DNA of 64,000 nucleotides from Desulfosudaceae bacterium (GCA_963674745.2 CAXXDV010000001.1:2592001-2656000), one strand, 5' to 3'; shown: positions 37,463 through 42,925, counted from the stretch's first letter. Numbers and translations: made by a program. Notes: generated from the sequence alone by a model not told the origin.

Positions 37463-37518
37463 ACCGGATGAAAATATGATAAATTGCCCCGCATGGAGGC
37501 TTTCCGGTTGACAAGAAA

Positions 37519-37552
37519 AGACGCTGCCGCACACATGTGTGCGGCAGCGTCT
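37519..37552. terminator. Perfect 34-bp palindrome between convergent genes; probable terminator
   Basis: AGACGCTGCCGCACACA|TGTGTGCGGCAGCGTCT, followed by TTTCTT on the minus strand. Confidence 0.7.
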
Positions 37553-37574
37553 CAAGGTTTTGTGACCGGACGAA

Positions 37575-39200
37575 TTAATTCAGCGCGGGCAGGGCATCAA
37601 GCATTTTCTTGTCCGAAGATCCGTTCAACTGGAAGCCCACCACATTTCCGGTGGCCGAAAATGCGATATAGGTGGCGTTGGTAATCGGCCTTGGCGTAAA
37701 AAGCTGCTCCGCCATGGCAACCACTTTTTCATAACCGTTCAGACTGATCGTCGTTGTCGCCAACACCCCTCCGTTGTCATTATAAGCCCTCAGGGTAATG
37801 GATGCATTTGTGGCCTCCGTGTTGACAAAAGCGATGCCTGTCCAGCCGTTTTTTTCAATTTTGGGGAATACACCTGCCAGGGCACCGGCTGAACCGCTTT
37901 CGGCATAGGCTGCCAGCTGACTGTTGTCCAGGGTGCTGAACAGCTCGAAGCCGCTGAGCGCTCTGGTGGCGTCAATCTTGAACCAGGCTGTCTGTTCCGG
38001 AAGATCAAGGTTTTTGACCAGGCCGATATATTTTTCTTTGCCCCCGATGGTAAGGTTGGATGTGGCCAGAGCAGTGCCGTCCTGGCTGAAAGGTGTGATG
38101 GTAATGTCGCTGGCGGCAGCTGACGGATTATAGGCGACAATACCGGTCCACCATGATTCCTGGTTGGCCACATGGGGATAGTATATGGTTGTTGCCGTAT
38201 CGTCTGTAAGGAGCAGGCCGTCCAGCTGGGTGGTACTGCCGAAAAGCTCCAGCCCGATGATGCCGCTGGCGTTGGAGATGACGGCAGACTTGATTCCCGT
38301 CTGGGGTTGCCCGCCGAAAAGTCCGGCGATGGTAAATATTTTATGCTCGTTGGCATTAATCGTGTAATTCTTACTTCGGCCGTCACTGAAATTAATGACC
38401 AGGGCTTTCGCCTGGTTGTTTGTATTCACCAGGCTGACACCGGTCCAGAAGTTATTGTTTGAAGCGATGTGTGAAATGTAAATGTTCGACGTGTTGATTT
38501 CTTTTACAGCCGGTATGGCCGTCCTGTATGCTCCTGATTGAAAGAATTTCGTATAACCTTCAACCTCGGCAACCGTATTCGTGGAAAAAACGATGTAACC
38601 GATATTGGCGTGGTTGACAAAGTCATTGGCAACAGTGATTTGTTTGCGGCCCCGGGGCCCAAGCGTAACGTCCATGACCTCCAGGAGGACACCACTGTTG
38701 CTTTTGGCCTTCAGCGTACCGTTGAGGGTCTGATTGGTACTGGTATTGATAATCGCAATCTCCGTCTGCCAGGGCGACCGCGTGGTAACATGCGGGAAAT
38801 AAAGATAGGTGACGTCCAAGGTATCAATGAAATACGCGGTCACGGATTTACTCTGTGAGGCCGTGTTAACCGTTATCGAGTTGGTGGTGTATATAACCGT
38901 GCTGCCATTGGCCTCGACTTTCCAGTAGTCAAAGGCATACCCCGTTGCCGGGACCGCCGTCAACGTATAAGTATCGCTGCACGTATAATCCGCGGGATAG
39001 TACGGTGGAATGGGGTTACCGGAAAAATCATTAGAGGACATATCACCACCACCGGCTGGGCTGACATTCACGGTCAGCGCTGGGCCAGGTCAGGCGGCGG
39101 TTGCCGCACCGGGCATGATCAGGGTGATACAAGAGAAGGCAAGGATCAGGCAAAACAAAAGAAGGCTTTTGTGGTTTAAAAAATGCGTTTTATATATCAT
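37575..39200 (-). CDS. Putative secreted selenoprotein, paralog C (541 aa, Sec37)
   Basis: ATG 39200; MIYKTHFLNHKSLLLFCLILAFSCITLIMPGAATAA-TGA(39090-39092)-PGPALTVNVSPAGGG continues in frame into the 498-aa ORF; SECIS-like hairpin 11 nt after TGA. Confidence 0.8.
39060..39078 (-). promoter_or_regulatory. Putative bacterial SECIS element (paralog C)
   Basis: GCTGAC-CGTGAAT-GTCAGC starting 11 nt 3' of in-frame TGA. Confidence 0.75.
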
Positions 39201-39256
39201 GTTTTTTTCCTTGTTTGTTGAAAAAATTGAACATTAACGAACGGAACGCAAGCCCA

Positions 39257-41050
39257 TCAGTGTAAGGCTGGAAGCCCGTCCATCAGCAATCCGTCTGAAG
39301 AGGCGGTTAACTGAAACCCCACGATATTTTTGCTTGAGGTAAAGGCAATGTAACCGGCAAAAGAAACGTTCTGGGGTGCAAAGAAATTTTCCACCAGGTC
39401 CACTTTTTTGGCAAGACTGCCCACGGTGAAAGTGCGGGAGGCCAATGCCACGCCTTCGTTGGTGTAGGCTGTCAGCGTAATTGTAGCATCACCGGCTTCC
39501 GCGTTGACAAAGGCGATACCGGTCCATCCGTCGGCTTCGATTTTGGGGAAAATACCCTGCCTGGCCCCGGCACCGTTTCTTTCAGCGTAGGCGGCCATTT
39601 TATTGTTATCCAGGGTGCCGAAAAGTTCAAAACCGACCAGGGGCTGGGAAGCGTTGATCTTGAACCAGGCTGTCTCGGATGGCAGGTTAAGACCCCTAAC
39701 CACACCGATATATTTTTCTTTTCCGCCGAGTACAAGTGTGGATTGGGTCAGCATTGCTCCTGTTACACTATAAGGGGTAATCGTAATCTGCGTGCTCAAG
39801 TTCCATGGATTGTAGGCGACGACACCTGTCCACCAGAAGGCCATATTGGCGATATGGGGATAGTAAACGACGGAGGTGGTATCATCCGTCAGCAGAATGC
39901 CATCCAGATGCTTTAAACCGCCGAACATTTCCATGCCGAGAATGCCGTAGGCATTGGTGATCACGGCAGACTGGATATCCGGTTGTGATCCACCCATCAG
40001 GCTGGAGATCGTAAATGCTTTATGCTCTTTGGCGTCAAGGGTTATTACAGCGGTTCGTCCGTTGTTAAAGGTAATAACCGGATTTTGAGGCGCTGAATTT
40101 GTATTCAAAAGGCTGATACCGGTCCAGAACCGTTCGTTCGAGGCAATGTGCGGAATATAAATATTCTGTGTGTTGACCTCGGTTGCCGCCGGTACTGCCG
40201 CCCGGTAGAGCCCTTCCTGTGAGAACTGGGTATACCCCTGAAGGCCGGTATCGGCGGCGTAAAAGATGACGTAGCCAATGTTATCATCGGATACAAAGGG
40301 GTTGGAAAAGTCAGTTACAACATTGTACTCCAGTCGCTCGTGGGGCGCAATCGTGACAGATTTGGTCTCTATCAGTTCTCCGGAATCACTGAATGCTTTC
40401 AGTTTTCCATTGATGCTTTGGGTGGCGTTGGTATTGATTATACCGATGACCGTTTTCCAGGGGAGGTCCGCGTAGATATGGGAGAAGTAGAGCGCAGGTG
40501 TTCCCTCTACTTCATCACCGGGACCCTGGTCTGTGTCATCGCCACCATCACCGTCGTCGCCACCATCACCGTCATCACCACCATCACCGTCATCACCGTT
40601 ATCACCACCACCGGTTCCCGGAGGCGGCTGCGCGCCCGTGTTTGAAAAGTGGGCTGTCACATATTTGCTGTCTGTTTCAATGTTCACGGTAACCGGGTTC
40701 TGAGTGGTTGTGGACACGGTAATTGTTTCGCCGGTACAAGCCACAGTGATCGTTTCAATTTCCCAGTAAACAAAAGAATACCCGTCTGCCGCATTTGCTT
40801 CCGCTCTTAACGTGTATTCGGAACTGGTTGAAAAATTTTCCGGATATGTGTAAGGTGGGCGACTGAAACTATAGCCGAAATCATCGGAATAGATATCACC
40901 GCCGCCGGCCGGGCTGACATCCACGGTCAGCTTGGGACCGCCTCAAGCCAGTGCCTTTCCGGGGGTTGCCACCACAATGATGGTTAACGCCCAAATCGTG
41001 CAAGCGACAAAAAAATTAAGACTATGGAAGAAGATATTATTTCGTCCCAT
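39257..41050 (-). CDS. Putative secreted selenoprotein, paralog B (597 aa, Sec36) with Gly/Asp linker
   Basis: AAGGAGG RBS, ATG 41050; MGRNNIFFHSLNFFVACTIWALTIIVVATPGKALA-TGA(40943-40945)-GGPKLTVDVSPAGGG in frame with the 555-aa ORF. Confidence 0.82.
40535..40606 (-). repeat. 18-bp coding tandem repeat (GDGGDD-like x4)
   Basis: gtcatcgccaccatcacc-type units encoding GDNGDDGDGGDDGDGGDDGDGGDD. Confidence 0.85.
40913..40931 (-). promoter_or_regulatory. Putative bacterial SECIS element (paralog B)
   Basis: GCTGAC-CGTGGAT-GTCAGC starting 11 nt 3' of in-frame TGA. Confidence 0.75.
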
Positions 41051-41088
41051 ATTGTTCCTCCTTATTCGGAAGTTTCGTCAACGAACAA

Positions 41089-42744
41089 TCAATCAAGGGC
41101 CGGCAGTCCGTCTAACATCTTGTCGTCGGAAGATCCGTTCAGCTGAAAACCCACGACGTTTCTGTCCGAACGAAAGCCGATGTAACTGGCAATCGAGATG
41201 TTGCTGTTGGAAAAGATGCTTTCCGCCATCTTGACCACTTTGGCATGGCTGTTGACTCTGAGTGTCGCCGTAGCCACGTTCATCCCGTCGTTCCGGTAAG
41301 CGGTCAGGGTCACATTGGCGGGGCTTACTTCTGTATTAACAAAAGCAATGCCCGTCCAACCGTCCTTTTCAAGCTTGGCAAAAGCACCTTGCTTACTTCC
41401 GGCACCGCTTTGTTCTGCATAAGCCGCCAGTTTCTGGTTATCCAGGGTGCTGAACAGCTCGAATCCGACCATCGGCGAAGTGGCGGTCAACCTGAACCAG
41501 GCCGTCTGATCGGGAAGGTTAAGGTTTCTGACCAGGCCGATATATTTATCATTTGGCCCGATACTGATGGTTGAACCGGTCAGCGCGTTTCCCAACTCGG
41601 AGTAAGGCGTGACGGTTATCGTGTTGGTCGTGTTCGACGGGTTATAACCGACGATACCGGTCCACCATGATCGGGTGTCGGCCACGTGGGGATAATATAT
41701 GGTAATCACCGTGTCGTCCGAAAGTACAATGCCATCCAACTGCGTATTTGTGCCGAAAAGTTCCAGGCCGACAATACCGCTGGCATTGGTAATCCTGGCC
41801 GATTTGATGTTCGGTTGCGCTTCACCTCCGAACAGGCTGGCGATGGTAAACGCCTTATGCTCGTAAGGGTTAAGCGTGACATTAGCCTGGCGGCCGTCAT
41901 TAAACAGAATCGTCAGTTTCTTGGTCACGGAGCCCGAGTTGACCAGGCTTATTCCGGTCCAGAAATTGTCGTTGGAGGCAATATGCGGCACATAAATGTC
42001 GCCCGTGTTCGCCTCTTTTATGGCGGGAACGGCGGTTCTGAATTTTCCTTCCTGGTAAAATTTCGTGTAACCAACGGCACCTTCTCTATCTCCATGAAAG
42101 GTAATGTGCCCGATTTCTTCCGGGTTCGAAAACCAGTCGCCAATGTTCAGCTCTCTCCGACCATGGGGATAAAGGGTGATCGATTTGTTATCTATTACCT
42201 GGCCGCTGTCAGTGTAGGCCCTCAACGTGCCGAGCATGTTCTGATCAGCATTGGTGTTGATAATGCATATTTCCGTTTCCCATGGTGATTTGGTGGACAC
42301 GTGTGGAAAAAACAGGGATGGCGCTTGGCTGAGCTCAAGAAAATAGGCCGTAACAGATTTTCCCTCTTCTAAAATACTGACGCTAATGGGATTCTGGGTG
42401 GAAAAATCGGTTGATGATACGGTATCACCCTGGCAGGTACTCGTTATGGTGTCGACTTGCCAGTAGGAGAACACATATCCTGTTTCCGAGTTGGGCATTG
42501 CCATCAGGGTATAGCTGGTTGCACTTGAAAAATTTTCCGGATACGTGCTTGGCATATTGTTATACGTATCAAATTGATTTGACATAATATCTCCGCCGCC
42601 TGCCGGGCTGACATCCACGGTCAGCTTTGGGCCGCCTCAGGCAAAAGCGTTACCCGGCGTCATAATAGCGGCGCAAACCATAACCGGCAGCGCAATTAAA
42701 AAGAAAATTGTCAGACATTTTTTAAGCATACGCTTGTGAATCAT
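41089..42744 (-). CDS. Putative secreted selenoprotein, paralog A (551 aa, Sec36)
   Basis: GGGAGA RBS, ATG 42744; MIHKRMLKKCLTIFFLIALPVMVCAAIMTPGNAFA-TGA(42637-42639)-GGPKLTVDVSPAGGG in frame with the 509-aa ORF. Confidence 0.82.
42607..42625 (-). promoter_or_regulatory. Putative bacterial SECIS element (paralog A)
   Basis: GCTGAC-CGTGGAT-GTCAGC starting 11 nt 3' of in-frame TGA. Confidence 0.75.
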
Positions 42745-42925
42745 TTTTAAGTCTCCCTAAATTAGTGCAATTTTTTACTGCTCTGGTCCGTACAGAAAGC
42801 ACTGCTGAGTGGACAGGTTTTCTAAGAACTTTTCCAGACCTTCAGACACCCGTTATATAATTTTAACGATTATATAATCGGATGATGATATTTCCCAGCT
42901 TTTTGTCAAAAAAAATAACGCTGTT

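Follow-up and report, generated by a model that had tools for sequence, protein, structure and literature searches.

A SECIS-type hairpin behind in-frame UGA codons in an apparently new family of exported proteins from a Desulfosudaceae bacterium and its relatives

Three tandem genes in a stretch of DNA from a Desulfosudaceae bacterium (GCA_963674745.2 CAXXDV010000001.1:2592001-2656000; the whole stretch of 64,000 nucleotides (nt) is called the window below) each contain an in-frame UGA codon followed at a short distance by a nearly identical hairpin. These hairpins are very probably bacterial selenocysteine insertion sequence (SECIS) elements of genes that encode selenocysteine (Sec). The UGA codons lie in frame, the hairpin is strictly linked to them and is under selection at the nucleotide level, its conservation exceeds that expected from chance or shared ancestry, and the genome holds a complete Sec machinery; SelB binding, Sec insertion, the site of signal-peptide cleavage and the role of the Sec residue are steps that we infer. 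The mechanism is of the ordinary bacterial kind and is already known, and what appears to be new is a family of proteins with Sec at the tip of an exported chain.

The three genes, called A, B and C, are paralogs on the minus strand that encode exported surface proteins, and their translation with TGA read as Sec (U) stays open from ATG to stop. Their features, given as positions in the whole window, are the following:

41089..42744, minus strand: gene A, with Sec36 behind a 35-residue signal peptide, then an InlB-B-repeat-like module and four tandem beta-sandwich repeats of about 410 amino acids (aa) in all.
42744, minus strand: ATG start of gene A, preceded by the Shine-Dalgarno-like site GGGAGA.
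42637..42639, minus strand: UGA of gene A, the proposed Sec codon, directly behind an A-F-A signal-peptidase-like site.
42607..42625, minus strand: SECIS-type hairpin of gene A, GCUGAC CGUGGAU GUCAGC, 11 nt after the UGA, encoding (K)LTVDVS.
39257..41050, minus strand: gene B, with the architecture of A, except that a Gly/Asp-rich linker joins the module to the C-terminal repeats.
40943..40945, minus strand: UGA of gene B (Sec36), behind A-L-A.
40913..40931, minus strand: SECIS-type hairpin of gene B, GCUGAC CGUGGAU GUCAGC, 11 nt after the UGA.
37575..39200, minus strand: gene C, with the architecture of A.
39090..39092, minus strand: UGA of gene C (Sec37), behind A-T-A-A.
39060..39078, minus strand: SECIS-type hairpin of gene C, GCUGAC CGUGAAU GUCAGC, 11 nt after the UGA.

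Each gene has a Shine-Dalgarno-like site ahead of its ATG, and the layout behind it is shared, consisting of a signal peptide of 35-36 residues, the TGA, G-G-P-K or P-G-P-A, and then L-T-V-D/N-V-S-P-A-G-G-G-D. An earlier note, made from the sequence of the window, had described a near-identical hairpin exactly 11 nt after each of three TGAs, with an invariant stem of 6 base pairs (bp) amid varying neighbouring codons and with G-U at loop positions 2-3. This description is accurate in every part: the spacers are of that length, the stem GCTGAC/GTCAGC is identical in A, B and C, the codons around it vary (CCA/CCC, GCA/GCC, GGC/GGT), and the 7-nt loop, CGTGGAT in A and B and CGTGAAT in C, has G-U at positions 2-3 in all three. 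Because G-G-P-K is kept between TGA and hairpin despite synonymous changes (GGC/GGT, CCA/CCC), these codons are evidently translated in this frame. An alternative genetic code with TGA as a sense codon everywhere was considered and rejected, since A and B themselves end at ordinary TGA stops (41089-41091 and 39257-39259) with no hairpin behind them and the other open reading frames (ORFs) of the window are normal. The mRNAs of A and B thereby each carry one TGA that is an ordinary stop and an earlier one that is the proposed Sec codon.

Read as codons, the hairpin is (N)G CUG ACC GUG RAU GUC AGC, so that its 19 nt also encode L-T-V-D/N-V-S, the first strand of the InlB-B-repeat-like domain. 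The DNA of A, B and C is about 60% identical, and among the 129 alignment columns with a shared fourfold or sixfold degenerate residue the same codon is used by all three genes in only 30 (23%). All five degenerate codons of the hairpin are identical across the three genes, an outcome with a chance of roughly 0.23^5 = 7e-4. The longest three-way identity in the genes is the hairpin region itself, where two runs of 10 nt are split by the single G/A position of the loop; elsewhere no run is longer than 11 nt.

The same pattern extends to 27 homologous sites aligned from this and other genomes. Leu is CTG in 26 of the 27, Thr is ACC, the first Val GTG and the second Val GTC in all of them, and Ser is AGC in 25, and a nearly invariant Pro directly after the hairpin is written with all four of its codons (CCG 10, CCT 7, CCC 5, CCA 4). 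The loop codon x is likewise variable (AAT, GAT, ACC, ACT, ATT, GAC, TCC, ATC). The stem opens on its 5' side with the base ahead of the Leu codon; this base is G at 25 sites, with a preceding codon for T, P, K, L, V, S, Q or E. The loop begins with C-G-U-G at all 27 sites, and two wobble bases within it (C in ACC, final G in GUG) are frozen, which fits a sequence-specific reading of the loop. Pairing is present in 99.4% of cells, compared with 13-55% when the partners are slid. RNAalifold predicts the 6-bp hairpin at -7.93 kcal/mol and no other pair from these sites; the weaker lower stem that the earlier note had thought possible is thus not conserved. The case is built on invariance at synonymous sites and not on covariation.

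To cover further genomes, a protein profile made from six N-terminal modules, in which the hairpin was not used, was run over 401 genomes of the same order and 401 across the phylum (802 genomes). Within the order, 42 of the 401 genomes matched, and 23 TGA-interrupted genes were found in 15 genomes besides that of the window; the phylum-wide sample yielded one further TGA-type gene. The hairpin is kept in all 24 of these genes, from 16 other genomes, so the loss from TGA-containing homologs that the earlier note would have counted against recoding was not seen: the stem is identical in 22, compensated in one (locus L053) and reduced to 5 bp in one (L064). In this genome, five genes combine the TGA with the identical stem, namely A, B, C and two genes elsewhere, D and F, and overall 29 genes from 17 genomes have the TGA at this one position. 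In the orthologs the UGA is kept, and the sequence is conserved as coding to either side of it. The copies outside the window, together with a paralog that has Cys at the Sec position, are located as follows:

Contig C1:1646226-1647572: gene D, Sec-type, with the same layout and stem and a different 11-nt spacer sequence.
Contig C1:1647573 onward: gene E, a paralog adjoining D, with Cys at the Sec position.
Contig C3:1353066-1352146: gene F, Sec-type, with the same layout and stem and a different 11-nt spacer sequence.

The distance of 11 nt, which holds in A, B and C, is not fixed in the family. Across the 27 aligned sites it is 11 nt in 18 (L064 included), 14 nt in five, 17 nt in three and 20 nt in one, every one of them in frame. 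An exact-pattern scan of one genome per species, in which spacers of 9-18 nt were allowed, gave 54 matches, 38 of them with an in-frame spacer (11, 14 or 17 nt, three of the ten allowed lengths). A signal peptide followed by U and the module, in translations judged by eye, is present in 36 of the 38 in-frame matches and in none of the 16 out-of-frame ones, which makes the 19-nt element a specific search probe. These loci overlap the profile matches and, having been selected by the hairpin, carry no information on covariation. As labelled, the taxa with the exact element are Desulfobacterales, Desulfococcaceae, Desulfosalsimonadaceae, Desulfonema, Syntrophaceae and four Dehalococcoidia; four of the 36 genuine loci thus belong to a different phylum.

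The peptide itself does not require these codons. Related controls were defined as LTVxVS without a TGA within nine codons upstream, of which ten were found in related loci; one was the antisense strand of the hairpin and was dropped. The remaining nine have 2, 3, 3, 5, 2, 3, 2, 3 and 4 of the six pairs and use mixed codons, and in this genome, long ORFs hold four unrelated occurrences of LTVxVS, with 2, 2, 2 and 3 pairs. The dropped case, at locus L050, is a trap for motif-based controls: the stem codons are reverse complements of one another, so that a hairpin whose loop codon is ACC spells L-T-V-T-V-S on its antisense strand too.

Cys-type relatives provide a second comparison. A Cys aligned to the UGA position was found only in paralog E and in its counterpart from a same-genus genome (locus L066). 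Paralog E reads CTT CAC GTC AGG GTC AAC at the hairpin site and keeps one of the six pairs; the second gene keeps four of six, with the loop CGUAAAG, as if its hairpin may have been decaying after a Sec-to-Cys change. Equal conservation of the hairpin in Cys homologs, the other outcome that the earlier note had set against recoding, is therefore not what these two genes display. A metagenome scan with the Cys paralog returned distant InlB-like domains only and no new Cys-type genes. The tandem arrangement of D (Sec-type) and E (Cys-type) is also kept at L066.

The genome encodes SelB (369.8 bits) and SelA (607.9 bits), a SelD gene with an in-frame TGA of its own, and a tRNA-Sec with anticodon TCA. 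Codon invariance, linkage to TGA and this machinery together uphold the earlier note's claim of support at the RNA level for Sec recoding, and from them we infer the insertion of Sec itself. The computational checks listed in the earlier note all spoke for that claim. The selA gene is present in 14 of the 15 other order genomes with the element, but also in 386 of the 401 genomes of the order, so its co-occurrence is uninformative.

A comparison with the fdh SECIS elements of the same genome, which the earlier note had suggested, agrees with this assignment. Three FdhA genes have an in-frame TGA, and their hairpins lie 12 nt after the UGA, with a 6-bp stem and the loop GGUCU or AGUCU; by this geometry, the conserved G-U falls within one nucleotide of its place in the new element. 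In E. coli fdhF, the stem-loop lies 11 nt after the UGA (a literature look-up gave no confirmation of this figure). The new element shares with the SECIS of the E. coli fdhF type a stem-loop placed in coding sequence directly behind the UGA, an upper stem of 6 bp and a small loop that carries G-U at positions 2-3. It differs from the fdh type in that its loop has 7 nt (CGUGNNN) in place of 5 and that it lacks both a bulged U and a conserved lower helix. As it doubles as the code for a conserved beta-strand, its sequence has also stayed fixed in many genes of at least two phyla.

The bacterial SECIS consensus model of Zhang and Gladyshev, summarised in PMC13188914, has a loop of 3-9 nt, a stem of 4-16 bp, a G in the first two loop positions that is usually followed by G or U, a UGA-to-loop distance of 16-37 nt and a minimum free energy of -7.5 kcal/mol or lower. 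In the new element, an in-frame UGA is followed by a coding-region stem-loop with a 7-nt loop, a 6-bp stem and the loop G, and the UGA-to-loop distance is 17 nt in the window and 17, 20, 23 or 26 nt in homologs, within the range of the model.

Beside the true SelB, this genome encodes a second SelB-like protein of 676 aa (contig C3:1795409-1797292; L008:1492-3522, minus strand), which is full-length, 25% identical to it and, at 239.9 bits, falls slightly short of the family cut-off. The beta-barrel and last winged-helix domains are retained and the DxxG and NKxD GTPase motifs have been lost; the protein could be a non-GTPase SECIS-binding protein.

Several observations weigh against the interpretation of the hairpins as SECIS elements. 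The hairpin is weak, its -7.0 kcal/mol alone falling just short of the -7.5 of the consensus model; the consensus fold of the aligned sites is at -7.93. The minimum-energy fold of the single sequence includes the hairpin in A and C and omits it in B, and the folds of the three genes do not clearly beat shuffled sequences (z = 0.51, -0.52 and -1.99). The 76-nt contexts of A, B and C fold at -19.9 to -27.3, the best fold of B being again one without the hairpin. At L053 the stem reads CUUUGAC/GUCAAAG, in which two pairs have changed and each change is made good on the opposite side (Leu CTG to TTG, Ser AGC to Lys AAA). Covariation is thin, since this single gene supplies both compensated pairs and no variation occurs in four of the six. 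The comparison of Sec-type with Cys-type genes involves few cases, with two Cys-type homologs, and the counts make the statistics look stronger than they are, since genes that are related cannot be treated as independent. No selA was found in one genome with the element (G385, 83% complete). Finally, Rfam at a permissive threshold gave chance-level matches only, and no SECIS family, over 37500-42900, so no curated RNA model covers the element.

The module that follows Sec comprises about 100 residues and matches the divergent InlB B-repeat domain PF18998 (cut-off 23.6 bits). This cut-off is passed by gene C (26.5 bits); B reaches 14 bits and A does not match, but both align with C over their whole length; among 18 homologs scanned, 14 match at a whole-protein E<=0.001, 12 of them with at least 23.6 bits and up to 53.4 bits. 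Like PF18998 proteins, the Sec module is predicted to be compact and all-beta (AlphaFold predicted local distance difference test, pLDDT, 87.9), and a Foldseek search of it against PDB gave nothing at E<=0.001. Ordinary PF18998 members, including the internal repeats of related genomes, differ in having no UGA, no U-G-G-P extension and no frozen codons. Almost every Sec module keeps at least one Cys besides Sec, at a position that shifts between subfamilies: mid-domain in (Y/F)TCS, before the last strand in xTCDQ, in an insertion in A and B, or beside Sec as UC or UAAC. This pattern is a hint of a possible Sec-Cys pair.

The Sec module heads several architectures, including the four-repeat body of A, B and C, rhodanese followed by K319L-type PKD domains, SdrD-B domains, and minimal proteins of 117-118 residues. 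A rhodanese domain (PF00581) stands behind it in nine of the 18 homologs scanned (L031, L032, L033, L034, L035, L058, L062, L063 and L064), a neighbour that suggests extracellular sulfur or selenium transfer chemistry. Of the 13 complete Sec-type ORFs without the four-repeat body, ten, D and F included, end in G-C-F-[IVL]-x5-6. The loci to which this tendency towards G-C-F-[IVL] tails refers are D, E and F in this genome and the homologs L038, L041, L049, L063, L034, L065, L045 and L066. These tails resemble the CFI-box proteins of NCBIfam NF041763, which one homolog passes (17.6 bits, cut-off 15.9); D and F do not match at E<=0.01, and A, B and C differ in ending with …LDGLPAL-D/H/N and no such tail. 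No literature mentioning the CFI-box was found. The N-terminal Sec and the C-terminal Cys tail occur together in the same small exported proteins.

The mechanism proposed for these genes would proceed in a few steps. SelB, loaded with Sec-tRNA(Sec), would bind the 6-bp stem and the C-G-U-G loop while the ribosome stands on the UGA 11 nt upstream, and Sec would be delivered there instead of termination, so that the signal peptide and the downstream surface protein would be made as one chain. Signal peptidase I would then cut after AxA, so that the mature exported protein would have Sec at position +1 or +2, immediately ahead of the first beta-strand of the InlB-B-repeat-like domain. That the stem and the first four loop letters are frozen and codon x is free is explained by the double role of the 19 nt as RNA signal and as the L-T-V-x-V-S strand; the element thus offers a model of dual coding, in which one 19-nt stretch is fixed both as an RNA signal and as a beta-strand. 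As a guess, Sec may be a reactive selenol that either forms a pair with the module's single Cys or handles sulfur or a metal at the cell surface, and it may be a redox or ligand partner of that Cys or of the rhodanese domain.

Of the explanations that compete with this mechanism, one accepts that Sec is inserted but holds that the residue matters little, the UGA and its SECIS serving as a selenium-dependent gate or as a translational pause for export. A UGA found in every case at codon 36-37 or shortly after the signal peptide, across many architectures, would suit such a role, as would the rarity of Cys-type relatives (2 versus 29 TGA-type genes in the genomes searched, with some relatives lacking both Cys and Sec). 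It is nonetheless improbable, since nearly every module keeps a Cys in a shifting place, which a functional Sec-Cys pair fits better, and the G-G-P context after Sec is conserved.

According to another explanation, the UGA ends a short signal-peptide ORF and the GUG within the loop is a start for re-initiation, which would give two products and no selenocysteine. The codons between UGA and hairpin, four to seven in number, speak for translation through this region, as they are conserved as protein (G-G-P) with synonymous variation, and the spacer in genuine copies is always a multiple of 3 plus 2. ORF callers do start the downstream frame exactly at the loop GTG, database proteins exist in that truncated form, and a GUG is present in the loop of every copy; however, there is no Shine-Dalgarno-like site at the normal distance ahead of it, and the downstream InlB-like, PKD, SdrD-B and Ig-like repeats are extracellular types that need a signal peptide. 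Moreover, an unbroken ORF encodes the Cys-type paralog, in which Cys takes the place of the UGA. Re-initiation is therefore very improbable.

The least credible explanation, that the identical 19 nt reflect protein conservation combined with codon bias or recent duplication, the palindrome being incidental and the TGAs stops or pseudogene lesions, could draw on the position of the hairpin wholly inside a conserved peptide motif of a repeat-domain family, on the four invariant pairs and on the single-sequence folds that do no better than shuffles, but it is already largely refuted by the other codons and fewer pairs of the same peptide without TGA (2-5 of 6 in nine of nine related and 2-3 in four of four unrelated sites), the free codon choice of the flanking Pro, the low codon sharing of A, B and C, the stem-opening G kept whatever residue precedes it, and a TGA that recurs at one place in 29 genes, unlike a pseudogene lesion.

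Beyond the SECIS assignment itself, a broader proposal may be considered, in which the signal peptide, Sec codon and SECIS strand form a portable 'N-terminal selenol cassette' that spread with its hairpin unaltered between Desulfobacterota and Dehalococcoidia and was fused to many surface bodies, from a four-repeat stalk, rhodanese with PKD arrays and SdrD-B domains to minimal proteins that end in a CFI-box tail, its exposed selenol working outside the cell. We regard this as tentative and, on balance, rather doubtful. If it were true, the selenol might swap sulfane sulfur with the neighbouring rhodanese, Se-S links might form with the Cys of the module itself or with the Cys in the C-terminal CFI-box of a partner, and there would be an extracellular selenium chemistry with almost no Cys-only equivalent. 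The frequent rhodanese neighbour points to possible handling of sulfur or selenium at the cell surface in sulfate reducers.

The family shares with catalogued selenoprotein families a single Sec, the existence of Cys homologs and an occurrence in the selenoprotein-rich Desulfobacterota and Dehalococcoidia; it differs in that Sec lies at the mature tip before an Ig-like repeat domain and not in a thioredoxin-like or catalytic fold. NCBIfam gave no match for A, B or C, which also fall outside its model NF049953 ('hypothetical protein DG', characterised by a GUxG motif). Table 1 of PMC13188914 (2026), which covers 119 selenoprotein families, has no entry with an exported, N-terminal-Sec architecture, and no literature pairing 'selenoprotein' with 'InlB B-repeat' was found. 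The preprint 10.1101/2022.07.06.499078, in the passages covered, describes other families. Gene callers break such genes in two or shorten them: in the protein database, Sec-type relatives begin behind the UGA under the name 'hypothetical protein', and an exported selenoprotein family with five copies in this genome has gone uncounted. Pipelines may miss this family because its Cys homologs are rare and at least one current method, deep-Sep, needs them.

The remaining features of the window concern the C-terminal part of the three proteins and the surrounding genes. The C-terminal body of about 410 aa is located as follows:

41092-42327, minus strand: C-terminal body of gene A.
39260-40501, minus strand: C-terminal body of gene B.
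37578-38810, minus strand: C-terminal body of gene C.
Contig C1:713965-715185: a further copy of the body in the same genome.

AlphaFold models the C-terminal 412 residues as four tandem beta-sandwiches (pLDDT 91.1, predicted template modelling score 0.89), each with a Y-x-P-H-V…W-W-T-G-I…N motif. No Pfam or NCBIfam family covers these approximately 410 residues, and Foldseek with the 412 aa found generic Ig-like or macroglobulin-like arrays only (alpha-2-macroglobulin-like proteins and adhesins; template modelling scores 0.10-0.18), so no function was assigned from the body. In the protein database it is common in Thermodesulfobacteriota metagenomes at 50-60% identity, almost always under the name 'hypothetical protein'. 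It is also found there fused to dozens of unrelated N-terminal domains, among them proteases, BACON, rhodanese, LamG and FN3. This very conserved module, which bears no family name, appears to be a widespread stalk or anchor on which domains are displayed.

The gene neighbourhood in the window contains an enoyl-CoA hydratase/3-hydroxyacyl-CoA dehydrogenase fusion, a sigma factor, a TPR protein, an M48 peptidase and LemA, and suggests no functional link to A, B or C. The Gly/Asp-rich linker of gene B is repetitive (GGGDNGDDGDGGDDGDGGDDGDGGDD, window positions about 40500-40610, minus strand) and is present only in this paralog among the three. Acidic linkers resembling it also precede the CFI-box tail in minimal homologs.

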